Origin: a virus
Lineage: Duplodnaviria > Caudoviricetes
DNA length: 64,000 nt
Reading direction: 5' to 3' (one strand)
IMG/VR virus record: IMGVR_UViG_3300042396_000691
Coordinates: 45,716-109,715 of that record
Under the pieces are notes generated by a model. That model did not search any database and was not told where the DNA came from. It saw nothing but the letters and a program-made list of their open reading frames with translations. Made by a program: the position numbers and the translations under genes. Of the stretch, positions 34,142 through 55,324 are shown in pieces (within the stretch, counting starts at the first letter, position 1; every line of letters starts with the position of its first letter).

Positions 34142-34167
34142 TTTGTAATCCACCAATAAATTTGTTT

Positions 34168-36699: not shown

Positions 36700-36700
36700 T

Positions 36701-38680
36701 TTATACCTCGTTTACTTTTATAAACATGTTCATATCAGCAAAATGGCTTGTGTGAAAATTAAGTCCATGCATATGTAAATATAATTTATTGTCTGCCCCT
36801 ACTACAACATTTGGAATGCTTAAATTAACAAAAGAATTTAAATTGTCGTGTCCTTTTTGAAATAAGTCTACATAATTATTCAAAGATGTTTTACCTTCTG
36901 TAAATAAATTCATAATATTTGCATAGTGTTCATTATCTCTAGAAACAAATAAGTCCATTTGCCCATTATTTGGCAGATAACCTTGAGATGTTCCAGTTCC
37001 TTCTATATAAAGTGTTTTTTCTATAGTTTTTCCCAAAGTGTCATTAAACAATGTTAAATTTAAATAGTTTTGAATATCTTCTTTAATTGTTAAAGACTCT
37101 GTGTATAAACTCATTCCAACAGAAAGATCCCCTATTAATGGAACTTCCATATATAAATTAAAACTTTGATGCTCACAGCTTCTAATGAAAAGATCTATGC
37201 CCTTATAGAATATTCTTATTGCCTCATCGCCCTGCATATAAAGGTTTGTTTTACCATCAAAAGGTATTCTTTTAGGTCCACTAATATAAAGTGGCAATAT
37301 TTTTTGAGGGTCTTGTTTTAAAAATAATTGCATTTTTTCATCAACTATGCATTTTACAAACATAGTTAAATTTGATTCTGTGTTTGAAAGTGTAAACAAT
37401 GACATTGAATTTTCTGGAAATGATTTGGTGAATAATCTTCTAATTCTTGTGCTTCTTCCAGCACCATCTATAAATAATGTTGCAGTATTTGAATAAGCAC
37501 CTCTGACATATAGGTTTTTTAAAGATGTATTTTTAGCATTTGATTTAACAAACAAGTTTAATGCGGATATAGGGTTTGCTTTTAAAAACATCGTCATAGT
37601 TTTAATAAAATCTTTATTGCCATGAGTAAATAAATTTAAATTGTTTTCTTCTGCGTTTTTAATAAACAATGAAACATTAGGTATTCCAACATTTATTGAA
37701 TCTAAAAAATAAGTTAATGAAAAACTATTGCTTATGGCAGGAGTTACACATGGGTTTGTAAACCTTAAAGTAAAATCTCCACCTGGATATATTTTTAAAT
37801 TTGAAAATGTTACTATACCATCTACAGCTTGTACCATAGTTGTACCAATGAATGCTCCTGTTCCAGTGTATATTTCTGCTGTAACTCGTAAATTAGAAGA
37901 GGTTACTACTTGATTATAAGCATCTCTAACCTCTATGACTGTAGCACCTAAAGCAACATTAGTGTAAGTGCCTGTTGGCTGAGTAGTTATGACCAATTGT
38001 GTTTCAGTAGTTATCTCATTACAGTAGATGGTTTGTATAAGGTCTATTTCTGTAGAATCAATTGCTTCGTCATATATTCTTAAGTCATCTAATTGATAGC
38101 CGTTAAAAGTATTAGTTATAAAAAATATGTTTGTATTATCAACTATCCTCTCTGTGCTAAACGGTATTGAATAATCTAATGTGTTTGGAGTTGGTGTTGT
38201 GCCATCAAAAAAAAGATCTTGTTGTGTTCCATTTAATGCCAAAGATAATGGTTCAGTTGGGCCTCTATAAATAATTATTATGTTTGTAAACTGTTGACTA
38301 AAATCATTTGCACCTAATTTTATTAAAGCTACTCCAGAATCAAAACCATTATTAAATCCAACGCTTAAGCTGTCTGTCGATGTTTTTATTGAAATGTAAA
38401 ATCTTGTATTTCCACCACCATAAATTTGAAAAATAATATCTTCTTCAACACCTTTTACCCAAAAAGATATTGTCCAAGGTGCATCTACCGTTGATGGCAA
38501 TGGGTTTGATTGTGTAAATACGCCACTAGTTAATGGGCCATGATAGCCATCTTGAAAGTTTAAACATTTTTGAACTAGCCCATCAACAAATGTGACAAGA
38601 CCTCTAGTATTAGAAAAATCTAAGTTTCCTATACTGTCAGTCAAGTCGCCATTGAATTTCCATTGATGTATTAATGCCAT
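36701..38680 (-). CDS. LamG/concanavalin A-like domain fibre protein with Ig-like domain and C-terminal repeats
   Basis: HQWKFNGDLTDSIG; WTISFWVK; LDDLRIYDEAI; QLVITTQP...GIVTFSNL; many LxLFxxG-type repeats. Confidence 0.72.
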   Translation of the reverse strand: MALIHQWKFNGDLTDSIGNLDFSNTRGLVTFVDGLVQKCLNFQDGYHGPLTSGVFTQSNPLPSTVDAPWTISFWVKGVEEDIIFQIYGGGNTRFYISIKTSTDSLSVGFNNGFDSGVALIKLGANDFSQQFTNIIIIYRGPTEPLSLALNGTQQDLFFDGTTPTPNTLDYSIPFSTERIVDNTNIFFITNTFNGYQLDDLRIYDEAIDSTEIDLIQTIYCNEITTETQLVITTQPTGTYTNVALGATVIEVRDAYNQVVTSSNLRVTAEIYTGTGAFIGTTMVQAVDGIVTFSNLKIYPGGDFTLRFTNPCVTPAISNSFSLTYFLDSINVGIPNVSLFIKNAEENNLNLFTHGNKDFIKTMTMFLKANPISALNLFVKSNAKNTSLKNLYVRGAYSNTATLFIDGAGRSTRIRRLFTKSFPENSMSLFTLSNTESNLTMFVKCIVDEKMQLFLKQDPQKILPLYISGPKRIPFDGKTNLYMQGDEAIRIFYKGIDLFIRSCEHQSFNLYMEVPLIGDLSVGMSLYTESLTIKEDIQNYLNLTLFNDTLGKTIEKTLYIEGTGTSQGYLPNNGQMDLFVSRDNEHYANIMNLFTEGKTSLNNYVDLFQKGHDNLNSFVNLSIPNVVVGADNKLYLHMHGLNFHTSHFADMNMFIKVNEV

Positions 38681-38698: not shown

Positions 38699-41600
38699 TC
38701 AAAGTTCATTTCTTTTAAATCCAGTAATAGCATTTTGTATTTGTGCTGCAATATTCAATGTTATTCCAGATAATGATTGCTGTATTGCTTGTAGTACACT
38801 TGGGGTATTAAAGCTTATATTCAACAATAATGGTGACATAGCTAAATTTATTGTGCTTGGTATACGATCTAATGCAGAGGTTAAATCATTTACTGCCATT
38901 TCAAAATTACGACTACTAGAAGTCATGGCCGATGCAGCAGTATTCATAATTGATACCGCTTGATTAAAAGTTGAACTTGCAGAATTAAATGATCCAGAAA
39001 CAACTTGTAAAGTTTGATTTAGTGTTCCTGCACCAACAGCCACAGATTCTCCCGCAACTCGTAAATTATTTCCTGCATTATTTAATTCGCTAGAATCAAA
39101 GGTTGAAATTGCTCCACGACCTTTACCACTTCCACCATCATAGTAGCCAACTTTTCCACCCTTGGCATAATTATTAACTCTATCTAAAAATGCAGTTCCA
39201 ACTCTATCTACTGCTGGCTTACTTACAACAAACTCTCCTGGTGTTAACATAGCTGGTTGAGTATCGGTGCTTGAACCACCATTGGCCATAAATCGGAATG
39301 GCCGAACAGGACCAGAACTAAAGACTGGGTTTCCTTGTACTCTATTTGCTAAACTAAAATAGCGGTTAGGGGCTGGTCTTGGTGGAGTAATTTTTTGAAA
39401 CGGTGCATCGTAATGCGACATTCTTGCATTTTTAATAGTGTCTAAAGCTTGAGTTGCTGCGACATCTGTATTGTTTACTGATAAACTTCCTAGACCATCT
39501 TTTTGCAAGGAAGATATTGCCTGTTGAGCTATGCCCACATTACTTCCAGGCATACTAGCAAGGCTGCTTCCAGCCAAAGCTTTATTAGCACTAACGCCTT
39601 GGAATGATTGATTTCCAGCTTTGCTAAAGCCAAGTTCATTTATATAGTCTTTAAGACTAACCTTATCATAATTTTGACCATTATCACCATGATTTGGTGG
39701 ACCACCAATTAATCCAGATATATAACGACTTCCAACAGCCGATGTTCTATATCCAGTTATTGGTGCTCTAGAAATTTCTTTATTGTTTAAGATGTCATTA
39801 AAAACTGAATCTTCCATTGCAAATTTTGAAGCACCAGCCAATTTTGCTGAACCGTATCTGGAATCAGATACTGCATTTAATCCACCAACATAATTGGGGA
39901 TTGGACCACCACTAAAAGAAATATTACCAGATCCAACTCCACCAAATTCTTTTGAATGTTTTTCAAGAATTTCAGTGCCATAATTGAAACTGTAATATTT
40001 AAATAAATCTGGTCTATTTAAATTTCCTGACCTATCTGCCCTATAGTTAGCTAAATTTCCAAGAGTATTTGCAGTGACTCTAGGGTTATAGACTCTGGAA
40101 GCTAAATAGCCCTGTGTTCCTATGTCAAAATCTGTCCTTCTTTTTTCATATCTAGTAGGTCTATACCGTTTACCACTAGCCATGTCATAAAGACCAGTTC
40201 CTTGATCAGCCATTCTATCCATTTCATTGTTATATCTTGGTCCAGAGCTTATATATCCCCTGCCTGGAGATTGTCCAGAATACCTAGCGTACATTGGGTT
40301 TATAGCTGTAAGATTACCACCACGATTTAAATACTTTACCGCCCCACCACTGTTAAGATTTTGCAAGAGAGGGAGATTAGCAGCAGTTGCCCTAGCATTA
40401 ACTACATACTCACCGGGAGATAGTATTGCTGGTACAGTATCAGTACCCTTTGCGACAAAGAAGGATGGGTCAGGGTTTGGAGCACTGCTTGGAACAATAC
40501 CGCCAGAGGCCATAGCAAGAGGTTTTTCAAAATTGTCTTCTTTAGCACCAATCCAATTATATTTTATACCTTTGTTTTTTTCAAAATAGTCATATATGTC
40601 TTTTGAAACGACTTCTTTTTCATCTGGAATGCTCAAATCTTTTTTTAGTTTATTCGAGTCATATTTAAAGAAATTTTCTTTAGTTTCTACATTTCCATCA
40701 TTAGAACTGTATTGTAATGCATCAAATCCTGTGTTAAATAAATTGTTGTTAAAAAATGGAACTATTGCAGTAAGTTTTTTACCAAAGTCTTTGCTAAATT
40801 GTTCTAATATTAAAGCATTTTCTTTTTGCCTTTTTTCAATTTCAATATTTTGATATTGTGGCCATAGTCCAGCATAGTTTTTTTCTGTTAATCCATTGTT
40901 TTGATCATTGTAATAAATTTTATCATTTATGTTTTTTATTAAACTAATATAATCTAACAAATTATCTTTTGTTGTTTCTTCTTTGTAAACACCACCAAAT
41001 AATTCTTGTTCAAGAATGTTTTTTAAATTTATTCTTTTTTCTTTATCCGCATCTATCATTTGTGGCTTATCTACCAAAGGATCTCCATATGACATATATG
41101 GTTCCATTAATGAAGAAACTTTTGCACTTTGTTCATTTACATAATCATCAGATCTTATTTTTTCGATTGGTGGTGCATCAAGTCTTAATTTTTTACCTGT
41201 GTCTTTTATTTTTTGATCTTCTCCAGCTTTAAGTCTTTCAGCAATTTCAATTTTACTATACAGTTCTTGTGATCTAATAGACTCTATGTCAAAAACTTCA
41301 TATTTTCTGTTCAAATCTTTTATTGGATAACCTTTATCATTTGATGGCTTAACACCAAGTGATTTTGCTATTTCCACTATTTTTTGTTCATTTTGATCGT
41401 CAAACAATATTTTTGGTTCAAGCTCTGAAATATTTGATAGGTTTTTATCTTGTTTAAACAATCTTCCAAATATTGCACTTTTATCATAATCGTTTATTTT
41501 TCCAGAATCGCCTTTTCCAAGTTTTTTCAAAATGGAATCTATGGAATCCGAGGCTTTACCATCTGGATTATATTTTTCTCTGATTTTATTAAGTTGTCCT

Positions 41601-44600
41601 TCGCTTGCACCACTTTTTTGCAAAGGGCTTATTTCTGAGATAAACGATTCTGGTATTCCTCGTTCACCTTTGTTTTTTAACTTTTCAAAAAGTATTGCAT
41701 CTTCTATTGAAGTATAGGGATTTTCATTAAGATATCTTTGATTTGTTAAATCTTTAAATCTACTATCTGTTACCATTCCATAAGATTCAAGTTCATCAGC
41801 GTACTTATTGAGATATAAAGAAGGATTGTTATTTAATTCTTTTGTGTATGATTCATTATCTGCATCATCAAAAAAAGCAGCGTGATCAGTACCCATGCCC
41901 CTAGCATCAAATCTTGGTTGTAAATATTTTCTTAAATATTTTGCTTCTTCTCTTTTTCCCTTTTTTAAATTTTTAGCATATGCATTTGAAAGTGTTTTAT
42001 ACTGTGCAATTATAAGTCCAATTCCAGCACCAACTAATGTGGCACCTGGAATAGGAATAGCAGTTCCAGCAAGTGCTCCAGCAGCTATTGCTCCACCAGT
42101 AGAAACTAATTCTCCAGTGCCTGTTGTATCAGCATTGCCTCCACCAAAGATTGATTCTGAATCTTGATATTTTTTCTTGTCGTATAAATTTGCAATTTCT
42201 GGAAAAGCTTGCCCATAAGTTTCAACAGCCTTTTGAAGCCTCACAGGATTTATATCAGATGTAAGAGAAGTTCCTATTGCCTCTAAATCACTAACTGTTT
42301 GAGGTAAAAATGCTAACCCCAAAGGTCCAGCAAATGGGGCAACTCTTGGTATTCTTGTAAATAATTCAAACAAAGGAATAATTGCTGCTGATGTTGCTGC
42401 TTCTTGACCCAATTTTTTCTTAATTTCACTTGGATCAACACCATACATAGAATCAACAATTGCTGTTCTAGCAAGTGGTAATGCCATTTGTGCATAAGCC
42501 CCATACTTTGCTATTGTTTTTCCACCATCTGCCATTTTAAATTTTGGAGAATTAGTAATTATTTTGTTGGCATTACCTCCAGCCCTAACTACTTGCCTAT
42601 TTACTTCTACAGAAACTCCTTTATTTTTTTCCCTTACTTTCTCTACAGCCCCCATTATTTGATTAATATCTCCACTTTTTGAAATGTCTTTATATTCATT
42701 TAGAACTTGAGTCATTTCACTTGAGGTGACACCTTTGCTTGCTAATATTTCTCTAATTGTCTGTTGTTTAGGTTGTGCAACTGGTTTTGGTAATTCAGCT
42801 ACAATTGGTTGCGGTTTTGGTGGCAATTTTGTTTCTGGTAGTACTTCACTTGGTTGAGTGCCAGTTCTTCCATCTGTTCCTTTTCCTGCATCATTTAAAT
42901 TTGGTTTATTGCCTGTTGTTACATCAACTTTTGGTGGCAATTTTACTTCTGGTGGTAATTCAACTTTTGGTATAGGCTTAACCGTTGGCTTAACTTCTGG
43001 TGGAACCACTGGCCCAACGAATGGTTCTGGTGGTAATGGCCCAACGAATGGTGCTGGTGCTGGTGGTCCAAAGATAGGTTGTCTGACTAATGGTAAAGGT
43101 CTTCTTCCATCAGCATTCAACCGCATTCTTGGACCGCCCCTTTGAGCTTCTATTACATTTCTTCTATCTTGTAGTATTTGCTGTTGTCTTAAAGCTTGAG
43201 CTTCTTGTGCTCTTATTTGACCTGCTCTTAATTCAGCAGCAGAATTATTTCTATCATTTCTAAGTCTTTCTCCAAGAATTCCTATAACACCCCTTGTTTG
43301 TCTTTCTCTTATTTCTCTTGGATCTAATAAACCAATAATTCCAAAATCTGTTCTGAAATTTTTAGGTTTTTCAAAACTAAAGACAGTATTTTTTATAGGA
43401 TTTTGAAGTGCCTCAAAATGAGTTGTTCCAGATTTATTTTTAAGTATTTTTTCATTTAAAAAATTAGATTCACTTTTCATTAAATCTTTAATGTTATTTT
43501 TTGAATCAATTTTTACATTTACATCAGATGGTGTTGTTTTTTTAACTTCTGAAGTAACTGGCTTTGCCATATCTCCTGTTTTATAATCAGCTATCTGATT
43601 TTCAAACTTATTTTGTTCAATAGCATTCTTAATAAAAGCTTCTTTTCCCTTTTGACTTAAATCTTGATATTTTGATAAATCATCCATGTTTAAATTTTTA
43701 ATAATTCGACTGGCTTTTTCAGTTTCCAAAAATTTTTGTGGTGTTTCTATATTTTTACTATTTAAAAATTCAACCCTTTCGGATTGTGACATTGTTTTAA
43801 ATTTTTCTATTTCTTGTTGAGTTAACTTTGCATTTTTTATTTGTTCGCTTAAAGTAGTAGCAACAGGTTTAACAGGTTCAACAGGAGCTTCACCCTCTGG
43901 ATAAACATCAACTGGTTTTTGAAAGAATTTTATTGTTTTATTGATTGCTGCTTTAGCAAGAAAATATCCAGGAACACCGATTCCAGTAGCAAGAATACCA
44001 GCTTTTATAAAATCTTCTGTGTTAAATTCTCTGTCTAAATCAATTACTTTATTTAAATCTGTTATATTTGTTAAAGGTTTATCTGCTGTGCCAGTATAAA
44101 CTTTTTTTGGATCTGCCCCTTTTAATTCATTTGTAAATGCAAATACTGCACCAGCAGTAAGTCCTGTTTTTAAAAGTAAAGATCTTAAAGATTCTTTTGG
44201 TGCAAACGATATATTTTTTGATGGAATCTTACTTGATGAAACTTTTTTTGAAGAATTAATATCAGGTGCATCTATAATCTTCTTAGGTTTTGACAAATCA
44301 ACTATTGGATTTTCTATTTTAGGAGGAAATAATGTATGAATACTTGCTTCGTTGTTTGGGCCACTTATATTTAATCCTTTAATTTTTTCAGCAGCAATAT
44401 CTGGTGAATATGCTCTTTTTATAGCTTCTTTAACAAGTTCTACTTCAATGCCTCTATTGCCAAATTTTCCCCCTAAAATTCCATCTAGTGCAATTGGTTT
44501 TCCTGCTTTAATGTCTTTTGCAATACTTTGATGAAAACCACTATTGTAAATATCTGCCATAGATTCATCGCTAGCATGATCAAGCATACTTAGTAATGCC

Positions 44601-47600
44601 GTTAATCCACGACTTTTGCCTGATTTTAACTTACGACTTTCATTAGCATTTGCTTGTAATTCAGACAGAAAAGTAGGTATTCCACCCTGCTTCCAAGGAG
44701 AACTGGCACTACCCCTTTTGCCATATTCCTCCATATTTATAGCACCATACAATGAATTATGCATAGGTGACATTTTATCTTGAGCAAAATCTTGAATCGA
44801 ATGAGTTAATTCATGACCCATTATTCCTTTTTGTTCTACTGGCTTTTCACTTATAGAATAATGAGCAGGATTACTTTTATACATGCTACTTCCTGTGTAG
44901 CTTCTGTCATAAACGGTTGAAACTTTAGGTTGGCCTGGTCCAGAATTATCACCTCCACGACCTAAAATATATTTTTGATTACTTACTTTTTCTAAAAATA
45001 CATCCATAGAATTTTTTATTCTTCTATTACTTGGTTGATCAAATAATTTATCTCCTATTTCCCTACTTTCTTCAAGATACTTAGTGGTAAATATATCCTC
45101 TGGTTTTTTCCAACCCAAACCTTGTATTGGGCCTCTTTCTTCTCTCAATCTTGCCAATTCTAATTTATGTAAATCGTAAAGTTCATGCATTCTCTTTTCT
45201 TGTTCTAAATATCTTTTAAACTGATCTATTTTTCTCCTTGGATTAATAGATTTAGAATTAGGATCAATTAAATACTTCTCTGCTTGAATCATAAATTCTG
45301 GATCATGAAGCACCCCAAGAGGCGACTTGGGTATTTCTTGAGCTTTGGGTTCAGCAATATAGGCACTTGTGCCTTGCTTGCCATATCCAGAAGTCATTTG
45401 TTTAAACATTCTGGAGAATATGTTTTCTCTTGGTTTTTTTTCTCTTGGTTTTAAATAAGAAAGATCCTTATTAAGCTTTAACCTACCAGTACCTTTAAGA
45501 GCTTTCCGAACTTCAAGAAAACCTGGTTCAAATGTTCTTTGTACAATTTTAGCAACTTCGGCATCTTCTACTGCAAGATTTTCTATAAGTTCTTTATTGT
45601 TAAACCATGAACTACCAGCATTAACTAATGGTGGAGGTATTCTTCGACTACTCAATTCTTGTTTAGATGGTTTTAAATATTTGGACATCGACATAGGACC
45701 ATCACTACTACCAATAGATGGTTCAACTGGTTTTTTACCACCAAAAAACTTATTTAAACCAAGATACCCTAAACCAGCAACAGTAGTAACACCCAAACCA
45801 ACAGCACCAATTTTTAAAAAGTCTTCAATGTTGAATTCTCTGTCTTTCTTTACAACATTTTTTAAATCATTTGGGTTTATAAAACTTTGATCTTTTGTGC
45901 CACTTAAAACTTTTTTCGTTTCTCCTGCCATTGACATATTTGGGAATGCTAATGATCCAGCAGCAACTAATGCTGCACCTATAGCTTTTTTACCAGCACC
46001 AACAAATGGTGAGATAGTTTTTGGATTTAATGCACCTTTTGAAAAAACAAGTTCATACTGTCCATTACCAATATGTTTATAAGCTCTAAAATTCTCATTT
46101 AAAGAAGCTTGAGGTTTTCCATCTATCGTAGGAAAATAAGTTGAGCCTTTCCCATGTCTTCCAGAATTTGATGGCTTTATAGAAGCATCATCGCTGACAA
46201 TAATCGTATGATTTTCATTTTGCCCTGCATAAGCCATGCTCGCTTGGCCCTTGCTAAATGATGGAAAAGCAGTTGGGCGAGCCTTCATTTTTTCAGCAAG
46301 AGTAGCATTTGAAGAAACCTTAGCATTAGCATTTGTTCTTACTGTGCCTAATTTAACATCACCTAAAGACTCTTCCCCATGAATTACACGGTAATATGCA
46401 TCTGAATTGTTGAAAAAATTACTATTTACTCGTTCTGGATATCCACCTTTGCTTAAATAACTAACCTTACCCCCACCATTCATATGATCTAAAAGACCCT
46501 TATTCTTTTTAGCCTTATCTGCACTAACAATAAATTCTCCAGATTGAACCATAGCTGGAGTTCTACCACCAGCTTGACCCCCCTTAGAAAAACCTATTGC
46601 CTTAATATTTTTGATACTTTTTAAGCCATAATTTCTTTCAAAATAACCAGCCCCAATAGTAGTAATTTCTGGTGGACTTCCAGCCATTAACAAATCTTCA
46701 AAATATGGTTTTAAATTTGCTCTTCTTTCGTAATATGATCTGGTGTTACCATCACGATCAACAGGATCAACTGCTTGTCTTCCATCTAAACCAACTGGGT
46801 TAGCATTAGCTCTTAAATAATCTTCTGTAGCATCTAATATTTGTTGGTAAGGAACTTGTTTTATAGCCAATGGCATCCCATAAACTACACCAGCTTTAGT
46901 CATTTGAAGAAGATTGTTTCTTGCTTCTACGCCAAGATTTTCTATATTTAAACCAGTTTCTTTAATGTCTGTTATTTTAGACCAAGGGGCAATATTTTGT
47001 TTTGAAACTATTGCACTAATTGGCAAAGATCCATCTTTATAAGGGATATTTGTAAGATCAGCACTTCCTCTTAATATTCTTAAAGAGTTATTTAAGGCGT
47101 TTCTTCTCCAAGAACCTCTAAGATTTCCAAACTTTGTTAAAACTGCGATATCAACATTTTGTTTTCTTTGCATTTTTGCAATTTTTTGTGCTTCTAAACG
47201 ATTAACATTTAGTGGAGCAAAAAGATCGCCAAAACCACCTTCTGCTAAATAATTAACAGGACCGCCAGCATTCATTGCTTTTGTAGGCTTAACTGTTCCA
47301 CCGCCATTCAAAGCTTGTAGCAAAGGAAGATTTTCAGATGTTGCTTTTGCGTTAACCACATATTCGCCATGATTTAACATGGCTGGTATTGTATCTGGAC
47401 CTATCGGTTTAAATACAGTTGGATCTGCACCAACCATTGCAGAAGAATGGGTCACCATACCACCAGTGTTAAACGCTCTTGGTCTTGGGGTAAGCGGATT
47501 AACTGGAGCGACTTGATTTACTGGAATATTTAAAAGGTTTAACTGAGCATTTAAATTTTGTATGCTATTTGCTGCAATAGTTGATTGTGTTTGAAGTTGT

Positions 47601-50600
47601 TCGATTTGTTGAAAAAACTGTCCACCAATAAGACCGCCAAGTCTTTGTATATCATCTATTGCTTTTGAAAAAGCCGATGAACTAACATTTTGTTGAAGTA
47701 AATTTAAAACAAAACTTCCTAAGTTTGCCTTATCTCCTTGAGCATTTGGATCATTTGTAAAATAAGTATTATTATTTGCATCAAGCTGTCTACTTAAACC
47801 TAATTTATTAGCTAACTCACCAGATTGTGTTTGAACCTCTTTGTTTTGTATAGTTTGAAACTGATCACCAGCATATAACCTTATAATAGATGCAAGATCT
47901 TTTTGATTAATCACTCCACTAGTTTTAGCACTTCTTTCTTGGACTTGTCCAATAATGGCATTAATATCTAAGCCTTGAAGATTTTTATTTGCAGCAAGAT
48001 TATTTAATAATTTACTAACATCTAAAACATTGTTTTGACCCAAAGAATTTGCTGCTATAACATCAGCCTGATTGGTATCTCTAAATTCTTCAGCCTTTTT
48101 TTGACTAGACCGTTGTTTTTCAACAGAAGCTAAAAACACAGAAATGTCTTTGCTATTTGGTGCTACATATTTAGTGTAACTTTCTTGAGTTACCATATTG
48201 CCGATAACACTAGCAGATGGGGCTACTGCTTGTAATTCTTTTATTCTTGCATCGTTAGCCCTAAGTGATTGTTCTTGCCCACCTATTTGTGTTCTTGTAA
48301 GTTCTGCGGACAACCTTGTAAAAAATTGTTCATTTTGTTTTGATAGTTCTGCAAAAAATTGACCTTGTAAAGTTTGTTGATCTTTTATTATTAATGACTG
48401 TGCTTGTTCTCTTACTGCCATAGCAGCAAAAAGTTGTGCGTTTAGCTGAAGTAATTGTGGACCATATTTATCTTGAACTTTTGTTTCTGGCTTAGATACA
48501 AAACCGCTTGCTTGTAAAAATTCAGACTTTAATTTTTTGCCTTCTTCTCCAGAAAAATCTAAGTATTCAAAAATTGCTTTTCTTTGTTCAACATTAAACC
48601 TTAAAAGGTTTCCACCAAGTTCTTTAGCAATACTAGTCAATTGACTACCAGCTTGAAGTCTTTGTAATTGTTCTGGCGATGATGTTAATAATTTTTCGCC
48701 CCTATTTTCTGTTTCAGATTGTTTTCTTGCATTGTCTTGTTCTTCGTTTGCTATTTCTTGTCTTATTTTTCCAACTCTTTGTTCAATTGCAGATACTTCT
48801 TCGGTTGAATCAGCAAGATTTTTCATTGCTTGATTAAGAAGTGAAGCTTCTACCTTTAATCTTCCCAACTCATTTGTCGCATCAGTATCTTGACCCCTTC
48901 CATTAGCCCCCGCTGTAAATCTAGCGTTTTTTCTTTTGGCTTCTGCTGCTTCTGTGTTAATTCTATTCTGATTGATTCTATCTTGTATTTGTTGAGGGTC
49001 TAATTGATCGCCATTATTAAGACCAGTAAGCCTAGCCTGTTGTTCTGCAAATGCTTGTGTCTGGTCAAATATGTTGGTCATATCAAGACCTATCTGACCC
49101 TCTTTTATCTCACCAAATCTTGCACCTAATGGATTTGCCGTTTTTTGTTTTTTTATTTCGTTTTCAATATCGATATTTGTTTTAAAATTTCTTGTTTGTT
49201 GTTGAATTTTTCCAAGTTTTTCGTATTCGTTTACAGTTTTTATTGTTTCTTGAGCTAATTTATTTATTCCAGATACATATGCATCTGATGCTTTTTCTAA
49301 ATCCTCTGCAATTTTTTGATAAGCTTTTAAGAATGGTTCTGAAACACCAGACATTATTTTTTTTGCAAATTCACCATAGTCACCACCAGATTCAGCAAGC
49401 ATCTTAGAGAAATCTTCGCCCATTTTTCCAACAATTGAATTAACATATGCTGTCGTATCTGATTTATTAAATCCTCTATTGTTTAACTCTTGTGTTAAAA
49501 CGCCTCTTAAAACAGATTGTGGATCTTTACCACCTTTAACATCATTTGGGTTTATGTTTGCAAGTATGTCTGGAAGTAGTGCAGATATATTTGCAACTAT
49601 GTTTCCAGATTTTTCAAAATTAGATCCGCTTGAACCAAGTCCGCTAGAAACATCTTTTAAGTTTTCCACAAACATATTAGGGTTTAAAAATGATGATTGA
49701 ACATCAGAAGATATTCTTTTCTTTTGACCTATAGAAAAATTTGAAGATAGTGCATCTGTTATTGTTTGAAACCTTGGACTTAAATTATTCAATGTTGAGG
49801 CAGCATTAGATGAAGCATTTGCCAAAAGTGAAAACGCTACATTAAGTTGTTCTGTACTTTTAACTGATAGTGTTTGATTTTTAATAGCAATCTGTTGTTT
49901 TTCAAAATCCCTTGCGAATGTTTCAAATTTCTTTTTTAATTTTTCTATTGGTTGATCTAAACCAATTGATAATTTTCCAATCTGTGCTGAATTAGAAGTG
50001 TCTTCAAAAAATTTACTTGGATCAAATTTTTGATCATCTCTTGGTTTAAAAGTTTTAGTTTTTTCATCAAAAGCTATACTTGATTTTATTTCTTCTTCAA
50101 TTTGTTTTGATAGAAGAGAATCTATTCCAGATGCTTGTCCTGCATATTGTGTTCTTCTTTCCGCTTTAGCACTCTTAGCCTCTTGCGTTCCCGAATTGGT
50201 TAATGAAAAACTTGTAACAGATGCTTTTGATTTTTCTGCAATTGCAGTATCGATTTTATCTTGTAAATCCGTTATTTCTTTTAATGTTGTAGCTGCTATT
50301 TTTTCAAATGATGTAGCTGCAACAGCAAATGCATTTTTTAATTGCGTTCCAGCTTGTTCTAATTTTATATCCGCAATTTGTTTTTCAGCATCTTTAAGAC
50401 CATTTACAAAACCAGTCAATCCACCAACAGCAGCACCAACAGCTATTCCCCACGGTCCTAAAAAGCTACCAACAGAAGCTCCAGCAGCAACACCAGTAAA
50501 AAGACCAGCACCCGCAGCATTGGCCTTATATTGAGCCTCACTTTTACTACTAACAGCTTCTTTTGCTTTAGCATCACTTAAATCAAATGATCCACCAATC

Positions 50601-53600
50601 ATGCCAAGGCCAGTACTAGCAGCAAAAATGTTGTTTTGCAAGTTCTCTCTAGAAAAAGTGGTTTTCGCAAAATCACTAACTTTTCTTCCTATTCCCTTTT
50701 TTCCTGTTTCCGAATAACCTTCTTTTTTTAATCGTTTAGCCAAATTTTCATCATAAAATTCACCCTTGGCTGTTGTTTGTACTTTTCTTCTTCCTGCTTC
50801 AACTTCACTAGCCATTTGTTGAGCTTGATCATTTGCAAATTTTTCATTAAACTCTAAACCTTTTGCTTCAGAAAAAGATTTTAATTGTTGAAAATATCCA
50901 GCTTTTGCCCTATCGTTAACATTGGTTGTAAGTGCTTTTCTAGTAGAACCAGTTGCTTCTTCCCCATAAAGTTTTTTATAATTAGAAAGTTCTTTTTCTA
51001 ATATTTTATTGTAACTATTTCCAAAAGTTGATGTTATTACCTGTCCATCTTTTGTAATATTTCCATCTGGATTTTCTTTGTATTTATTTTTTAATTTTTC
51101 AATTTCTCCCTGCACCCTTGCCCTAGATCTTTCATCTTGCCCTATTCTTTTCCTATTATCTGCCAACTCTGTATTTACTTTTCCCAAATCAGCAAGTGTA
51201 GCAGCATAAGCTTGTTCTGCTGCTACTCTAGTGGCTGTAGAAGCGGTAGTTGGTACACCAGCCCTAATATCTCTTTGTTCAGCCTTTTTTGCTTTTCTTA
51301 CATCTTTTTCTTGTTGAGACAAAGCCCCTGTTAATTTTTGTTTTTCTTCGTTTAAAAGTTTTTCGTATCTTAAACCTACTATTATTTCTCTTGTTACTTT
51401 TCGGTTTGCATCCAAAAGAGGTTTTACATCTTTGCTAGTTTGATTCATATCTTTTACAACATCTATTGCCTGTTGTCTATTTTGGCCTCTTTCAGTAGAA
51501 TTTGTTGGTATTCTAAATTGCTGTTCAAGCCTTTTTGCAATTTTTATTTCTTCTTTTGTTAAACCACCATAACCACCACTGGCAAATTTCTTTCTACCAG
51601 TCGTATTCATATAATCTAAGTTAGGAACACCAATCTGCTTTGTTTCATCTGGACTATAGATGTATTCCCCAGGCATAACTAATGATGGAATAACACCACC
51701 ACCAGCCCTTCCAAGTCGAGATAAGTTTGAAGCACCTATGCTGTTAACTGAAGATTTTTTAATTACATAAGAACCAATCGGCAAATCTAATGGAACACTG
51801 TCAGTGTTACCAACGCCTGGAACTAAACCGCCAAGAGCTAATTTTGGTGGTTTTGGTAATTTTGATGTTTTTAAAACACTATTTTGTTGTTCCGTTAGTT
51901 TTAGTTTTTGATTTTGAGTATTAGCAAGGCTTGGATCTCCTTGTGTATAATTTTTGTCTTTTACAAGTTGTTCATATTCACCTTCTTTAAACTTTGCAGT
52001 ATTGTAAACAACACCAATACTACCAAGATTTATAAGGTTGTCTTTTTCTATGCTATTACTAAGCTTTTTTTGGTTCCCAATTCGCATTTGATATCTAGCT
52101 AATTTGTCTACTAATTCAGCATCTGAAACTGCTTCTCCTACATTTTTTACCTCATATGGAATTTTTCCAATTAAATCAATAGGAAAACCAGGCTTTGTTC
52201 TTGAAGCACCCAATCGTTCTGCTGCAAATATTTCAAAGGAATTTCCTTGAGCACCAATGTTTTTTAATTTGGCCGATTTTTGATCTTCTAATGGAAAACT
52301 AATTATGTTGTATTTAATTGTATCATTTGGATTAATTAGATTTCCAGACCTATAATCGTCATCCTTTGGATTTTTTGATGAATCAAAGAGTTTTAAAAGC
52401 AATTCTTTTGATATGAATTGCTCGGCTTGAATAGAGCCACCACCGCTAAAACGACTTCTTGGAATAACCAATTCACCTGGTTCCAACAATGCAGGAACCT
52501 TATCACCCCTACCAACTCCTGGTACAATTCCACCCTTCGCCATTTTAATTATCCCACCAGAAGCTTTTTTTGCTCCAGTTGGCAAAAATGGAGAAAATGT
52601 ACTTGGTTGATTTGCTGGTGCAGGAGAAAAAGCCGTACTACCAAATCCCTTTGCAAAACCAGTCAAACTTTGAGCCGTTTTTACTGCTGCAATAGCAGTT
52701 ATAACTGGCAAAACCCCTTTTAAAGAATCGGCAAGTGCAATACCAGCAGAAGCAGCACCGAGAAGTAAATCTATAAGCGATTTAAAAGAAGATGTGTTCG
52801 TAAGATTTCTAATAAAATCTGAAAATTCTTCTTTAACCTTTTGTATTTTTACACCAAAAGCCTCTTGTGCTTGTGCAGCATTTAGAGCAAGAGAAGCACC
52901 ACCTATTTGGGCGACACCTAAAGCTTTCTGTGCGACACCAAATTCTTGAATAAGTGGTATAACCTTAGAGATCTGCCTATATCCACCAAGTTCTTCGACA
53001 ATGGCACTAAACCTTGGATCTGTAGATCTAAGCTCATTAAGAGCACCAGAAAGCCTTTTAACAGCCTCGTATGGCCCAACAAACTGATTTGCAAGACCTA
53101 AATCGCCAGCAGCTTTAGCTTCGTCTGCTGTATACCTTAGTTGTACGCCAATTTCTTTAAGTGCTTCAACAGTTTCGTTACGCTGTACCCTAGTAAATAT
53201 AGTTCTAAGTCCAGTTCCAATACTTTCTGCACTTTCTCTAGTTGTTTGCCTAATCGATGTGAATAATGCTAAAAATTCATTTAGGTCGCCACCAGCAGCT
53301 TTAAAAGCACCACCAGCTTTACGAACACCTTCAATTAAGTCTTCAGCCTCAACAGCAAATTCAGCAGCAACAGCATTAATTGCACCAAGGGCATTACCTA
53401 AGTCTTTTGCACTTATGCCAAACTGATTCATAACTGCAATAGCACCTTCGGTAGTGTCTCTAAGGTTATCAAAGCTTGGGGCTAATGCAGCTTGAGCCAA
53501 TGCTTCAAGTGCTGCTTTGGTGTCCGCTAAACTTAAGTTTGCTTGTTTTAATGTCACTGCCGTTGTAAGCAGTTCTTTGCTAGAAACACCATAATTCTTT

Positions 53601-53992
53601 GACAGTCTACTTACTTCACTACCTACAGCACCAACTTGCCCAACACTGTCTGTAGAAACTTGAGTTAATCTGATCATTTCACGATCAAAATCTATAGCAG
53701 CAGTTAATGCTTGCTTTAGAGAAGATGTAAAAGTGATAATAGCTCCAGCAGTAAGCGTAAAAGCCACAAATCTTTTAGCAGCTAAACCTGACTGTCTACC
53801 AAACTGTTCCATAGCAGTACTAGCTTCTTCTGCTTGCACTTTAATGTATTTTAAACTATTTCCAGAATCTTTTGGTAAACCTAAAGACACTGCACCAACA
53901 TCTTTCAATTGACTGTTGATGGTGTTAGCAGCATTTTTTAAAGATGCCGTATTTAGTGCTACATTCAACTGTGCCGTTAAATTAAAAGCCAT
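38699..53992 (-). CDS. Giant tail tape measure protein (5097 aa) with embedded accessory domains
   Basis: TP901-type core (AIDFDREM, ESAESIGTGLRTIFTR); Ala/Gly hydrophobic segments; coiled coils; position after tail tube and chaperones. Confidence 0.9.
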   Translation of the reverse strand: MAFNLTAQLNVALNTASLKNAANTINSQLKDVGAVSLGLPKDSGNSLKYIKVQAEEASTAMEQFGRQSGLAAKRFVAFTLTAGAIITFTSSLKQALTAAIDFDREMIRLTQVSTDSVGQVGAVGSEVSRLSKNYGVSSKELLTTAVTLKQANLSLADTKAALEALAQAALAPSFDNLRDTTEGAIAVMNQFGISAKDLGNALGAINAVAAEFAVEAEDLIEGVRKAGGAFKAAGGDLNEFLALFTSIRQTTRESAESIGTGLRTIFTRVQRNETVEALKEIGVQLRYTADEAKAAGDLGLANQFVGPYEAVKRLSGALNELRSTDPRFSAIVEELGGYRQISKVIPLIQEFGVAQKALGVAQIGGASLALNAAQAQEAFGVKIQKVKEEFSDFIRNLTNTSSFKSLIDLLLGAASAGIALADSLKGVLPVITAIAAVKTAQSLTGFAKGFGSTAFSPAPANQPSTFSPFLPTGAKKASGGIIKMAKGGIVPGVGRGDKVPALLEPGELVIPRSRFSGGGSIQAEQFISKELLLKLFDSSKNPKDDDYRSGNLINPNDTIKYNIISFPLEDQKSAKLKNIGAQGNSFEIFAAERLGASRTKPGFPIDLIGKIPYEVKNVGEAVSDAELVDKLARYQMRIGNQKKLSNSIEKDNLINLGSIGVVYNTAKFKEGEYEQLVKDKNYTQGDPSLANTQNQKLKLTEQQNSVLKTSKLPKPPKLALGGLVPGVGNTDSVPLDLPIGSYVIKKSSVNSIGASNLSRLGRAGGGVIPSLVMPGEYIYSPDETKQIGVPNLDYMNTTGRKKFASGGYGGLTKEEIKIAKRLEQQFRIPTNSTERGQNRQQAIDVVKDMNQTSKDVKPLLDANRKVTREIIVGLRYEKLLNEEKQKLTGALSQQEKDVRKAKKAEQRDIRAGVPTTASTATRVAAEQAYAATLADLGKVNTELADNRKRIGQDERSRARVQGEIEKLKNKYKENPDGNITKDGQVITSTFGNSYNKILEKELSNYKKLYGEEATGSTRKALTTNVNDRAKAGYFQQLKSFSEAKGLEFNEKFANDQAQQMASEVEAGRRKVQTTAKGEFYDENLAKRLKKEGYSETGKKGIGRKVSDFAKTTFSRENLQNNIFAASTGLGMIGGSFDLSDAKAKEAVSSKSEAQYKANAAGAGLFTGVAAGASVGSFLGPWGIAVGAAVGGLTGFVNGLKDAEKQIADIKLEQAGTQLKNAFAVAATSFEKIAATTLKEITDLQDKIDTAIAEKSKASVTSFSLTNSGTQEAKSAKAERRTQYAGQASGIDSLLSKQIEEEIKSSIAFDEKTKTFKPRDDQKFDPSKFFEDTSNSAQIGKLSIGLDQPIEKLKKKFETFARDFEKQQIAIKNQTLSVKSTEQLNVAFSLLANASSNAASTLNNLSPRFQTITDALSSNFSIGQKKRISSDVQSSFLNPNMFVENLKDVSSGLGSSGSNFEKSGNIVANISALLPDILANINPNDVKGGKDPQSVLRGVLTQELNNRGFNKSDTTAYVNSIVGKMGEDFSKMLAESGGDYGEFAKKIMSGVSEPFLKAYQKIAEDLEKASDAYVSGINKLAQETIKTVNEYEKLGKIQQQTRNFKTNIDIENEIKKQKTANPLGARFGEIKEGQIGLDMTNIFDQTQAFAEQQARLTGLNNGDQLDPQQIQDRINQNRINTEAAEAKRKNARFTAGANGRGQDTDATNELGRLKVEASLLNQAMKNLADSTEEVSAIEQRVGKIRQEIANEEQDNARKQSETENRGEKLLTSSPEQLQRLQAGSQLTSIAKELGGNLLRFNVEQRKAIFEYLDFSGEEGKKLKSEFLQASGFVSKPETKVQDKYGPQLLQLNAQLFAAMAVREQAQSLIIKDQQTLQGQFFAELSKQNEQFFTRLSAELTRTQIGGQEQSLRANDARIKELQAVAPSASVIGNMVTQESYTKYVAPNSKDISVFLASVEKQRSSQKKAEEFRDTNQADVIAANSLGQNNVLDVSKLLNNLAANKNLQGLDINAIIGQVQERSAKTSGVINQKDLASIIRLYAGDQFQTIQNKEVQTQSGELANKLGLSRQLDANNNTYFTNDPNAQGDKANLGSFVLNLLQQNVSSSAFSKAIDDIQRLGGLIGGQFFQQIEQLQTQSTIAANSIQNLNAQLNLLNIPVNQVAPVNPLTPRPRAFNTGGMVTHSSAMVGADPTVFKPIGPDTIPAMLNHGEYVVNAKATSENLPLLQALNGGGTVKPTKAMNAGGPVNYLAEGGFGDLFAPLNVNRLEAQKIAKMQRKQNVDIAVLTKFGNLRGSWRRNALNNSLRILRGSADLTNIPYKDGSLPISAIVSKQNIAPWSKITDIKETGLNIENLGVEARNNLLQMTKAGVVYGMPLAIKQVPYQQILDATEDYLRANANPVGLDGRQAVDPVDRDGNTRSYYERRANLKPYFEDLLMAGSPPEITTIGAGYFERNYGLKSIKNIKAIGFSKGGQAGGRTPAMVQSGEFIVSADKAKKNKGLLDHMNGGGKVSYLSKGGYPERVNSNFFNNSDAYYRVIHGEESLGDVKLGTVRTNANAKVSSNATLAEKMKARPTAFPSFSKGQASMAYAGQNENHTIIVSDDASIKPSNSGRHGKGSTYFPTIDGKPQASLNENFRAYKHIGNGQYELVFSKGALNPKTISPFVGAGKKAIGAALVAAGSLAFPNMSMAGETKKVLSGTKDQSFINPNDLKNVVKKDREFNIEDFLKIGAVGLGVTTVAGLGYLGLNKFFGGKKPVEPSIGSSDGPMSMSKYLKPSKQELSSRRIPPPLVNAGSSWFNNKELIENLAVEDAEVAKIVQRTFEPGFLEVRKALKGTGRLKLNKDLSYLKPREKKPRENIFSRMFKQMTSGYGKQGTSAYIAEPKAQEIPKSPLGVLHDPEFMIQAEKYLIDPNSKSINPRRKIDQFKRYLEQEKRMHELYDLHKLELARLREERGPIQGLGWKKPEDIFTTKYLEESREIGDKLFDQPSNRRIKNSMDVFLEKVSNQKYILGRGGDNSGPGQPKVSTVYDRSYTGSSMYKSNPAHYSISEKPVEQKGIMGHELTHSIQDFAQDKMSPMHNSLYGAINMEEYGKRGSASSPWKQGGIPTFLSELQANANESRKLKSGKSRGLTALLSMLDHASDESMADIYNSGFHQSIAKDIKAGKPIALDGILGGKFGNRGIEVELVKEAIKRAYSPDIAAEKIKGLNISGPNNEASIHTLFPPKIENPIVDLSKPKKIIDAPDINSSKKVSSSKIPSKNISFAPKESLRSLLLKTGLTAGAVFAFTNELKGADPKKVYTGTADKPLTNITDLNKVIDLDREFNTEDFIKAGILATGIGVPGYFLAKAAINKTIKFFQKPVDVYPEGEAPVEPVKPVATTLSEQIKNAKLTQQEIEKFKTMSQSERVEFLNSKNIETPQKFLETEKASRIIKNLNMDDLSKYQDLSQKGKEAFIKNAIEQNKFENQIADYKTGDMAKPVTSEVKKTTPSDVNVKIDSKNNIKDLMKSESNFLNEKILKNKSGTTHFEALQNPIKNTVFSFEKPKNFRTDFGIIGLLDPREIRERQTRGVIGILGERLRNDRNNSAAELRAGQIRAQEAQALRQQQILQDRRNVIEAQRGGPRMRLNADGRRPLPLVRQPIFGPPAPAPFVGPLPPEPFVGPVVPPEVKPTVKPIPKVELPPEVKLPPKVDVTTGNKPNLNDAGKGTDGRTGTQPSEVLPETKLPPKPQPIVAELPKPVAQPKQQTIREILASKGVTSSEMTQVLNEYKDISKSGDINQIMGAVEKVREKNKGVSVEVNRQVVRAGGNANKIITNSPKFKMADGGKTIAKYGAYAQMALPLARTAIVDSMYGVDPSEIKKKLGQEAATSAAIIPLFELFTRIPRVAPFAGPLGLAFLPQTVSDLEAIGTSLTSDINPVRLQKAVETYGQAFPEIANLYDKKKYQDSESIFGGGNADTTGTGELVSTGGAIAAGALAGTAIPIPGATLVGAGIGLIIAQYKTLSNAYAKNLKKGKREEAKYLRKYLQPRFDARGMGTDHAAFFDDADNESYTKELNNNPSLYLNKYADELESYGMVTDSRFKDLTNQRYLNENPYTSIEDAILFEKLKNKGERGIPESFISEISPLQKSGASEGQLNKIREKYNPDGKASDSIDSILKKLGKGDSGKINDYDKSAIFGRLFKQDKNLSNISELEPKILFDDQNEQKIVEIAKSLGVKPSNDKGYPIKDLNRKYEVFDIESIRSQELYSKIEIAERLKAGEDQKIKDTGKKLRLDAPPIEKIRSDDYVNEQSAKVSSLMEPYMSYGDPLVDKPQMIDADKEKRINLKNILEQELFGGVYKEETTKDNLLDYISLIKNINDKIYYNDQNNGLTEKNYAGLWPQYQNIEIEKRQKENALILEQFSKDFGKKLTAIVPFFNNNLFNTGFDALQYSSNDGNVETKENFFKYDSNKLKKDLSIPDEKEVVSKDIYDYFEKNKGIKYNWIGAKEDNFEKPLAMASGGIVPSSAPNPDPSFFVAKGTDTVPAILSPGEYVVNARATAANLPLLQNLNSGGAVKYLNRGGNLTAINPMYARYSGQSPGRGYISSGPRYNNEMDRMADQGTGLYDMASGKRYRPTRYEKRRTDFDIGTQGYLASRVYNPRVTANTLGNLANYRADRSGNLNRPDLFKYYSFNYGTEILEKHSKEFGGVGSGNISFSGGPIPNYVGGLNAVSDSRYGSAKLAGASKFAMEDSVFNDILNNKEISRAPITGYRTSAVGSRYISGLIGGPPNHGDNGQNYDKVSLKDYINELGFSKAGNQSFQGVSANKALAGSSLASMPGSNVGIAQQAISSLQKDGLGSLSVNNTDVAATQALDTIKNARMSHYDAPFQKITPPRPAPNRYFSLANRVQGNPVFSSGPVRPFRFMANGGSSTDTQPAMLTPGEFVVSKPAVDRVGTAFLDRVNNYAKGGKVGYYDGGSGKGRGAISTFDSSELNNAGNNLRVAGESVAVGAGTLNQTLQVVSGSFNSASSTFNQAVSIMNTAASAMTSSSRNFEMAVNDLTSALDRIPSTINLAMSPLLLNISFNTPSVLQAIQQSLSGITLNIAAQIQNAITGFKRNEL

Positions 53993-54075: not shown

Positions 54076-54957
54076 TTACTTACTTTCGATATCTTTCTTT
54101 TCAACAGATTCAACTGCTTGAACCTTTTCAACTGTCTCAGCTTTTTCAGCTTTTTCAGCCAAGGGCTTGCCTTCGTCATCCAAGAATGGAGTAAATTCAA
54201 CAATATACTCCCCTTTTTCATCAACCAGATTGCCATGAATATCAATTAGTTCATCTTTTTCATTGATATATCTGCCATCTTTGTTGACTAATCTTCCTTC
54301 GGAATCAACCCTGTGGCCACTTTTATTAACAAAATTCAAGTCTTGATCTACAAACTTGTACTTCTTAAGAAATTCATTCTCTGGAAGCTTTTTTTCATAG
54401 TCTGGATCAAGGTTATACAGCATCAACGCTAGGTTACTTGCTGCTGGATTAGTTACTGGGTCATCATCCCTATTTAGATAGTCTTCATAACTAGCATAAT
54501 AAGTTTTACCCGTATCTGAATACACCGTACAAGCACTAACCCAGTAGTTGAATTGAGCATTATCTGCTTGACCTTCAGCAGTATTTGAATCTAACGAAGA
54601 ACGCTCAGATGTAAGCGACCTAAGTTCAGCCCTGTCCTTCTTCATTTGAAGGGCTAAGTCCTTTGCCTCAGACAGTTTAATACCACCAGACTTGATCTTT
54701 CTTTCATTAGAATTAATTTTTTCAACTAATTTTTTATACTGAGCTTCCTTATTATCATCCCACAAGTTCTGCTCTCGCATAACATTGTTTACTTTAGCAC
54801 GAAGGATAGCACCTGATTCGACTGCATCCCGAAATGCCTTGTTGTATGTCTTTTGCCCTTCTTGTCGTTGTTTGACATTAGGGCGAATTACGCACAATTC
54901 CATCTCTTTGCTATCAAGAGTTACCTTAAAAACCTTCTTGTTATCGTTGACACTCAT
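54076..54957 (-). CDS. Putative tail assembly chaperone (short paralog)
   Basis: Directly upstream of TMP; helical; has [VI][DN]xxG beta-hairpin repeats. Confidence 0.55.
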   Translation of the reverse strand: MSVNDNKKVFKVTLDSKEMELCVIRPNVKQRQEGQKTYNKAFRDAVESGAILRAKVNNVMREQNLWDDNKEAQYKKLVEKINSNERKIKSGGIKLSEAKDLALQMKKDRAELRSLTSERSSLDSNTAEGQADNAQFNYWVSACTVYSDTGKTYYASYEDYLNRDDDPVTNPAASNLALMLYNLDPDYEKKLPENEFLKKYKFVDQDLNFVNKSGHRVDSEGRLVNKDGRYINEKDELIDIHGNLVDEKGEYIVEFTPFLDDEGKPLAEKAEKAETVEKVQAVESVEKKDIESK

Positions 54958-55324
54958 CTTTGTCCTCCTTTGTTTTTAGAAAAGTCTGGTGTCTATTCCA
55001 AGAAATCAAATACTGGCCCATCTCATTTTCTACTGCTCTTATTTGATGATTGCCGTTATTGAGTACTGCCGTTCTACATTCTTCCCATAATTGCTTCCAT
55101 TCTAACTGTTCGTCTGTAAGTTCACTTTCTGACAAACGATGCCCCCAAAGCTCTCCAAAATTTTGCTCAAAAGAAGATAACGCACCAATAAAGGCAGTCC
55201 TAACTTTTGTGCTAGTAATTTTAAAAAGCCTAGCTCTTGAATCTGATTGATATTTTTTTTTGCCCTTTTCATTTTCCTCCTGACTTAATCTTAACGCATC
55301 TTGCATCTGTTTTTCAACATCCAT
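54941..55324 (-). CDS. Hypothetical tail-module protein
   Basis: 127-aa ORF with RBS AAGGAG. Confidence 0.55.
   Translation of the reverse strand: MDVEKQMQDALRLSQEENEKGKKKYQSDSRARLFKITSTKVRTAFIGALSSFEQNFGELWGHRLSESELTDEQLEWKQLWEECRTAVLNNGNHQIRAVENEMGQYLISWNRHQTFLKTKEDKDECQR

Follow-up and report, generated by a model that had tools for sequence, protein, structure and literature searches.

Seven copies of one conserved module punctuate a mosaic, giant tape measure protein of an uncultured phage

Introduction

Tape measure proteins (TMPs) are ejected first and form a conduit for the DNA, and they sometimes carry a wall-degrading domain. What purpose could be served by a TMP of 5,097 residues along which one motif is repeated seven times? 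The question is raised by a gene in a stretch of phage DNA of 64,000 nucleotides (Caudoviricetes; IMG/VR virus record IMGVR_UViG_3300042396_000691, positions 45,716 to 109,715), the whole of which is called the window in this text. The record comprises 109,715 bases and is 73% complete by CheckV, so that the genome is estimated at about 150 kb. The protein is probably a mosaic, cassette-bearing TMP, in which the repeated motif is a punctuation module needed by the tail machine and used also as a scaffold for recombination.

The gene and its layout

The features of the gene, ordered from the N-terminus of the protein to its C-terminus, are as follows, with motif scores taken from a family hidden Markov model (HMM).

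38699-53992, minus strand: TMP gene, an uninterrupted open reading frame (ORF) of 5,097 residues with no stops in frame
52988-53614, minus strand: PhageMin_Tail / TP901 tape-measure domain, residues 127-335 (PF10145, E 1.1e-24, 87.8 bits against a cut-off of 33.2)
52685-52786, minus strand: hydrophobic stretch (Kyte-Doolittle), residues 403-436, just upstream of motif copy 1
52430-52513, minus strand: core of motif copy 1, residues 494-521, 26.8 bits
51812-52429, minus strand: slot B, residues 522-727, hypervariable among close relatives
51602-51811, minus strand: motif copies 2 (51707-51811, residues 728-762) and 3 (51602-51706, residues 763-797) in tandem, 38.5 and 38.7 bits
47402-51601, minus strand: segment C, residues 798-2197, a long, moderately conserved body
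47306-47401, minus strand: core of motif copy 4, residues 2198-2229, 41.8 bits
46577-47305, minus strand: segment D, residues 2230-2472, conserved in the close clade, with no family or PDB match
46478-46576, minus strand: core of motif copy 5, residues 2473-2505, 35.6 bits
40451-46477, minus strand: slot E, residues 2506-4514, hypervariable, about 2,000 residues with several sub-modules
44273-45592, minus strand: HExxH module, residues 2801-3240, inside slot E, recognised by residue pattern only
40349-40450, minus strand: core of motif copy 6, residues 4515-4548, 47.1 bits
39275-40348, minus strand: segment F, residues 4549-4906, rich in Gly, Ser, Asn and Tyr
39170-39274, minus strand: core of motif copy 7, residues 4907-4941, about 46 bits
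38702-39169, minus strand: C-terminal tail, residues 4942-5097, homologous across the family

A purine-rich GGGGTGA stretch precedes the ATG at 53992. Besides the Pfam match, TIGR01760 (tape_meas_TP901) of NCBIfam matches residues 87-298 (E 2.3e-21, 76.2 bits against a cut-off of 28.8), and all PHROG matches of the protein are tape-measure families. Beyond this N-terminal domain no family was detected with Pfam, PHROGs or NCBIfam, and a lysozyme, SLT, M23 or Rpf-type domain was absent at a Pfam E of 0.1 or below. Among 50,697 deposited phage genomes no close relative was found, the best match being 28% identity over 215 residues to TMPs of the SPbeta group, and searches of this collection with the N-terminus and the copy-7 region of the TMP revealed no cultured phage whose TMP has at least three copies of the motif. 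The ORF is a genuine single-gene TMP of the TP901 type, from an uncultured long-tailed phage. Its layout may be described as an N-terminal TP901-type domain, a hydrophobic stretch, a chain of segments that each end in a copy of the module, and a C-terminal tail of about 160 residues.

Seven copies of one module

A first-pass annotation of this DNA had placed seven copies of the motif within the TMP, and all seven were recovered, every HMM envelope falling inside the range then given. With a loose pattern the TMP yields seven sites and no more, their conserved proline being at residues 500, 734, 769, 2203, 2479, 4521 and 4913. The motif HMM has 35 positions and was built from 696 copies in 121 proteins; it gives the seven copies 26.8-47.1 bits, far above the maximum of 4.5 bits reached by 500 shuffles of the protein, and no other six-frame ORF of at least 40 residues in the window exceeds 4.2 bits. 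The module, which extends beyond the pattern given in the first-pass annotation, has a 35-residue core of roughly GG..D.(V/I)PA(M/L)L.PGE(Y/F)V, after which comes a stretch that closes with L..LN. The core is usually flanked by a hydrophobic-x-x-GG-hydrophobic strand on its N-terminal side and by one or two further GG elements after it. Kinship of the motif with self-cleaving peptidases of the S24/LexA type was considered and rejected, as hhalign against lambda CI gave a probability of 0.77%.

Core identity between copies within the TMP is 9-37%, apart from copies 4 and 6, which share 69%. When the copies were compared with those of 16 relatives that also have seven, each of the 112 comparisons gave the copy of the same rank as the closest. 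The copies are therefore not recent duplications but old and fixed in position. Recombination between copies within the gene was also considered and rejected, as none of the 20 largest direct-repeat families sits at motif coordinates.

Distribution of the module among tape measure proteins

An HMM of the motif, the check proposed with the first-pass annotation, was mapped across relatives. A search for proteins of 2,803-8,920 residues returned 136 matches, of which the best 120 (2,803-7,872 residues, nearly all with PF10145) are the relatives listed here. These and the TMP, 121 of 121 proteins, carry 2-10 copies each, most often five to seven, with 700 copies in total. In a library of 1.84 billion representative proteins, a profile built from the seven copies matched 13,141 at E <=1e-3, 3,335 at E <=1e-10 and 641 at E <=1e-30. 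The 641 protein clusters score as multi-copy, and the best 150 library matches (2,122-7,872 residues) have 4-11 matched stretches. A literature search, which is no proof of absence, found no published account of giant TMPs that carry a motif in several copies; these forms constitute a large and apparently undescribed class of giant TMPs.

The two ends of these proteins are held in common and the interior is diverse. In a set of 247 proteins the median start of the first copy is residue 534, and the median gap from the last copy to the C-terminus is 161 residues. Similarity clustering placed 220 of 225 N-terminal domains in one component, as well as 212 of 224 C-terminal tails, and split the last inter-motif slot into 93 components among 223 proteins. 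By analogy with lambda, T5 and Douge, the C-terminal tail of the TMP is presumed to dock in the tail tip. A hydrophobic stretch precedes the first copy in 172 of 239 proteins and other copies in 39 of 1,109 cases, and in the TMP it stands directly upstream of copy 1 only.

Three called proteins have an edge at the motif (P0093, P0214 and P0244): in two of them the initial Met lies right at a copy, and the third stops 16 residues past one. They could reflect gene fission at a motif or be mere fragments; as such edges were seen in only 3 of 247 proteins, the fission lead was rejected.

Mosaicism of the segments between the copies

When the 18 closest proteins are aligned, conservation peaks at every motif. 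Identity drops right after copy 1 (residue 521) and returns just before copy 2 (residue 720); it drops again after copy 5 (residue 2520) and returns before copy 6 (residue 4480). Many local alignments to relatives end at residues 2517-2530 or begin at residues 4483-4489. Identity to the TMP also changes from segment to segment, as seen in three relatives (Ec denotes the C-terminal part of slot E, residues 3750-4480).

P0002: slot B 73%, segment C 75%, Ec 32%, segment F 57%, C-terminal tail 96%
P0003: slot B 35%, segment C 55%, Ec 86%, segment F 69%, C-terminal tail 46%
P0011: slot B 36%, segment C 54%, Ec 24%, segment F 83%, C-terminal tail 79%

Maximum-likelihood trees of segments C, Ec and F were built from the 14 closest proteins (P0015-P0018 were excluded as long branches), and they place the TMP in three different neighbourhoods with support of 87-99 each. 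In approximately unbiased (AU) tests the grouping of Ec is rejected by the segment C data (p = 7.9e-6), and both other groupings are rejected by the segment F data (p = 4e-7 and 0.0025).

Whether such changes coincide with the motif was assessed from the Spearman correlation between the identities of the 150-residue blocks on either side of each copy, over 91 protein pairs, with 35 pseudo-boundaries placed inside segments as the control. The pseudo-boundaries had a median of 0.77, with none at or below 0.10 and six at or below 0.35. The values at the motif were 0.08 for copy 1, -0.08 for copy 6, 0.34 for copy 7, 0.51 for copy 5, 0.61 for copies 2-3 and 0.81 for copy 4. Copies 1 and 6, which lie below all 35 pseudo-boundaries, are therefore clear joints, with copy 7 as a probable third. 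In 301 of 3,892 protein pairs, homologous modules were found in permuted order.

The DNA that encodes the motif keeps exact matches of 26-83 nucleotides with diverged relatives. Beyond residue 450, exact runs of at least 26 nucleotides lie within 30 residues of a motif in 13 of 23, 7 of 10 and 13 of 33 cases in three relatives, compared with about 13% expected from length. These runs would provide a foothold for homologous recombination. Since motif-coding DNA is near-identical between otherwise diverged relatives, the copies probably act as landing pads between which segments are exchanged as cassettes, and the most marked exchange slots are the one after copy 1 and the one between copies 5 and 6.

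Contents of the cassettes

The first-pass annotation took several intervals for globular domains without coiled coils; what the sequence shows is conserved, catalytic-looking signatures and hydrophobic stretches on the Kyte-Doolittle scale. The HExxH module of slot E is present in 20 of the 121 proteins; nine have it after copy 5, at times in duplicate, and 11 have it after copy 1, so that the same module occupies different slots in different clades. In its eight-row alignment H260, E261, H264, E311 and a further H are invariant in 8/8 rows (numbering of the aligned stretch, residues 2801-3260), and the spacing HExxxH was seen in 4/8 rows. The module can be called peptidase-like by this pattern only; it gave no match in Pfam or in a PDB profile search, and a word-based search for stand-alone homologues of 253-805 residues returned none.

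Two homologous repeats of about 60 residues bracket the HExxH module (45743-45925 and 43913-44125, minus strand; residues ~2690-2750 and ~3290-3360). Both end in a hydrophobic glycine-rich stretch, and they look like the footprint of an insertion or duplication of the module; they were seen by eye, and self-BLAST at E 1e-3 was silent. Residues 3241-3640 of slot E (43073-44270, minus strand) align to none of the 120 relatives and are followed by a Pro-rich linker at residues 3640-3745.

Slot B is exchanged for a longer, different type in three close relatives. Four residues are invariant in 8/8 rows (E118, D137, E145 and K147, numbering of the aligned stretch, residues 470-830), and the signature E..D..ExK is nuclease-like by pattern only. 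The slot has no Pfam match, the only PDB match for residues 470-830 is at chance level (E 0.041, an unrelated enzyme), and a word-based search for stand-alone homologues of 113-361 residues found none; a weak lead in the ESM Atlas points to RE_Eco47II (0.79). Kinship with the PDDEXK_1 protein encoded in the window itself was tried and rejected (hhalign 0.17%). For segment D the PDB profile search stayed at chance level (best E 0.29), and segment C has a weak, sub-threshold, glycine-zipper-like match at residues 1161-1224.

In the listed relatives a recognised enzymatic Pfam domain is found in 3/120 proteins, namely ART-PolyVal, ADPrib_exo_Tox and SNase. The ART-PolyVal domain (E 1.5e-17) lies at residues 529-724 of P0044, in the slot that follows copy 1 and is bounded by the copies at 477 and 989. 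Enzymatic-looking cassettes of this kind, such as the HExxH module here and ART-PolyVal in P0044, could enter the cell envelope or the cytoplasm with the ejected TMP. EF-hand families, SHD1 and PF28597 are each annotated in a few of the 120, and in four of five additional relatives with several copies the TMP domain was the only one recognised.

The uncharacterised family PF28597 is annotated for 11 of the 120 listed relatives (P0007, P0008, P0014, P0019, P0035, P0038, P0050, P0078, P0080, P0082 and P0092). It may describe the motif or one cassette; a scan of P0014 with a Pfam set that lacks this family gave only PF10145.

Comparison with known tape measures and polyvalent proteins

Against 177,635 PDB sequences the seven-copy profile matched the Douge TMP twice (E 8.8e-7) and residues 747-776 of lambda gpH (E 0.027), and the family HMM scores residues 753-773 of gpH at 19.2 bits. 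With its GG flank the unit of gpH extends over residues 733-776; it thus starts at about residue 733, right after a glycine-rich stretch at about residues 700-721. In lambda, gpH was reported to be cut into gpH* (about residues 1-710) and gpHC; the virion retains gpHC, which binds gpI by way of residues 818-849 (PMC12617516). Residues of about 690-817, the motif included, are not visible in the structure presented there, and ejected gpH was described as forming a trans-envelope conduit (PMC12617516). The account of processing in that source gives neither a mapped cleavage site nor a protease (PMC12617516). In gpH the motif stands between a hydrophobic, glycine-rich stretch just upstream and a tip-binding C-terminal tail; the TMP resembles it in having the homologous motif, a hydrophobic stretch just upstream of copy 1 and a C-terminal tail that is presumed to dock. 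It differs in that gpH has one copy in 853 residues and no inserted slots, compared with seven copies in 5,097 residues here. Motif-directed cleavage would be a conjecture even in lambda; the parallel makes a maturation site a plausible role for the module.

The TMP of mycobacteriophage Douge (gp16, PDB 8ZDO) has two motif copies, at residues 970-1011 and 1417-1459 of 1,699, and its C-terminal 42 residues were reported to form a trimer docked in the hub of the baseplate (PMC13033339). It differs from the present protein in having two copies only, and its motif regions are not visible in the structure. T5 pb2 was described as cut, in the course of assembly, between a hydrophobic stretch and a C-terminal piece with a metallopeptidase motif, and this piece, pb2C, as staying in the tail and proposed to be ejected into the periplasm (bioRxiv 10.1101/2022.09.20.507954). 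After the hydrophobic segment of pb2 a GG...GE..E.V stretch resembles the motif by eye only. Among other large proteins, Thermus phage P74-26 has a TMP of 5,006 residues, annotated in its record with a metallopeptidase domain, and SPbeta YomI (2,285 residues) is 28% identical to the present protein in the N-terminal TMP domain; the gene that matches YomI is labelled a transglycosylase in some records of SPbeta-like phages.

The polyvalent proteins of phages and conjugative elements offer a parallel in concept, being very large, delivered with the DNA and built as chains of variable conflict domains (Iyer et al., 2017; PMC5512222). Their ART-PolyVal domain recurs in the relative P0044. The TMP itself has none of their signature Pfam domains, punctuation by a repeated motif is not described in PMC5512222, and the word 'tape' does not occur in its main text.

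Weighing the explanations

The copies are old, position-specific and strongly constrained, and each therefore probably serves the tail machine. Most likely, the module would be a node at which the TMP bundle within the tube docks, bends or matures; in view of the size of the module, its constraint and the fixed terminal positions, docking, hinge or registration fits at least as well as maturation.

Several results weigh against a mosaic TMP whose cassettes are exchanged at the module. With regard to exchange, copy 4 is no joint, copies 2-3 and 5 stand out no more than roughly one in three pseudo-boundaries, and a further joint lies inside segment C near residues 950-1100, where there is no motif. 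In one of the four AU tests the Ec data fail to reject the grouping of segment C (p = 0.09), and the groups compared were all named after the trees had been seen. Alignment end-points fall near motifs in 43% of raw and 26% of de-duplicated cases, with 12.5% expected, and this enrichment is partly a by-product since the motifs are conserved islands. Some order-permuted modules of high identity join away from motifs, for example between P0062 and P0097. With regard to cargo, most inter-motif sequence matches no family in Pfam, PHROGs or NCBIfam, and the AlphaFold2 model of the HExxH module from its eight-row alignment, mostly low-confidence helices with a mean pLDDT of 39.4, is unusable. T5 pb2, with a motif HMM score of -4.1 bits, is a cargo-bearing TMP in which the motif was not detected, and neither the P74-26 TMP nor YomI has a copy; the punctuated architecture is thus not general to giant or enzyme-bearing TMPs. 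The proposal of the first-pass annotation that the motif is a recombination joint accordingly holds for copies 1 and 6 and probably for copy 7, where identities are decoupled and trees conflict; it is weak for copies 2-3 and 5, and it fails at copy 4.

A possible though doubtful alternative is that the TMP is a plain long ruler that only sets tail length, the copies being periodic nodes for bundle registration or for contact with a chaperone or the tube and the segments interchangeable spacers. Copy number rises with protein length in the 247 proteins (r = 0.66, about one copy per 650-1,000 residues, a correlation inflated because the second half of the set was chosen by total motif score), and this would fit a periodic structural role without any cargo meaning. 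The scarcity of family matches between the motifs and the mostly low-confidence helices modelled for the HExxH module point the same way, as does the 5,006-residue TMP of the cultured phage P74-26. The tail of that phage is very long. Mere spacers, however, would not keep H-E-H...E or E...D...ExK invariant across diverged relatives, nor would the ART-PolyVal, ADP-ribosyltransferase and nuclease families found in relatives be expected of them. The tandem copies 2 and 3, together with 52 of 579 inter-copy gaps shorter than 20 residues, are not periodic.

It is unlikely that the TMP is a true polyprotein, in which a proteolytic cut beside every copy would yield up to eight tail fragments, each ejected on its own, and some of these would work as enzymes in the envelope or the cytoplasm of the host. 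This reading draws on lambda, where the single homologous copy directly follows the glycine-rich region of gpH cleavage, and on T5 pb2, likewise cut between a hydrophobic stretch and an enzymatic C-terminal piece. The hydrophobic stretch that so often precedes the first copy, the GG pairs that flank every copy and the three called proteins that start or end at a motif would also agree with it. The link between motif and cut in lambda is positional only, however, the hydrophobic context of lambda recurs only at the first copy, the three edge cases may be gene fragments, and a conserved module of 35-80 residues far exceeds the needs of a protease site. Family searches found no protease in the TMP or in 10 neighbouring ORFs, and the HExxH module, present in only 20 of 121 proteins, is not a general processing enzyme.

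The first-pass annotation had gone further and proposed an injected polyprotein of effectors. This part of its reading fared poorly: no effector domain was recognised in the TMP, enzymatic domains are as rare among relatives as stated above, and most inter-motif sequence matches no family, which makes the effector polyprotein a weak proposition. In its widest form, the module would be the determinant of TMP maturation with a cut beside it wherever it is present, by analogy with the cut of gpH into gpH* and gpHC, and TMPs with 4-11 copies would be virion-packaged polyproteins that inject a series of separate proteins, swappable by recombination, with peptidase-, nuclease- and ADP-ribosyltransferase-like cassettes among them; this is distinctly unlikely.

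An artefact, in the form of a mis-assembled or mis-called ORF of 15.3 kb that joins several genes on a metagenomic contig, is highly improbable, given the frame without stops, the collinearity of 17 close relatives outside the variable slots (3,635-5,166 residues, different sources), the same architecture on four independent viral contigs, and collinear relatives of 4,400-5,200 residues on many contigs, which argue against a chimeric assembly.

Neighbouring genes and other features of the window

The 10 ORFs that flank the TMP gene are on the same strand, and 10/10 lack a PHROG match; Pfam matches were obtained for two of them, a glycosyltransferase and a ConA-like lectin. Directly upstream lie ORFs 54076-54957 and 54941-55324 (minus strand), which overlap by 17 nucleotides and have no family match. 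This is the usual place of the tail assembly chaperone pair with its programmed frameshift. Downstream, at 29354-34195 and 34168-38680 (minus strand), are ORFs of 659, 428, 414 and 1,613 residues with no PHROG match, and the ConA-like lectin domain of the 659-residue ORF is the only Pfam match among these four. The presumed tail-tip module downstream of the TMP is very divergent.

The minus-strand half of the window is a block of large ORFs, one of which (59779-61566, 595 residues) carries a family-2 glycosyltransferase domain. The plus-strand half contains replication genes, encoding DnaB, primase, a split DNA polymerase III alpha, a RecA-like protein and a PD-(D/E)xK nuclease, together with three group-1 glycosyltransferases within 15827-20136 (plus strand). 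The polymerase occupies two plus-strand ORFs, 11006-12919 (PHP and NTPase domain) and 13823-15445 (finger, HhH and OB), with two small ORFs between them, 12912-13181 and 13182-13820; a mobile element may have been inserted here, or the gene may be naturally split. A search of the 64-kb window yielded neither tRNA nor tmRNA genes.

Concluding remarks

A conserved and easily recognised module is now linked to the region of lambda gpH cleavage. Hundreds of uncultured phage lineages have multiplied this module along TMPs of 2,100-7,900 residues, with exchangeable segments between the copies. If the module directs maturation or docking, the giant forms show how phages may add and swap injected functions while the tail machine is left unchanged. 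If the polyprotein reading were true, these proteins would play, in the lumen of the tail, the part that polyvalent proteins packaged in the head play there. If the module is only a structural node, it would still constitute a previously unnoted repeat unit of very long TMPs and a scaffold for recombination within one gene.

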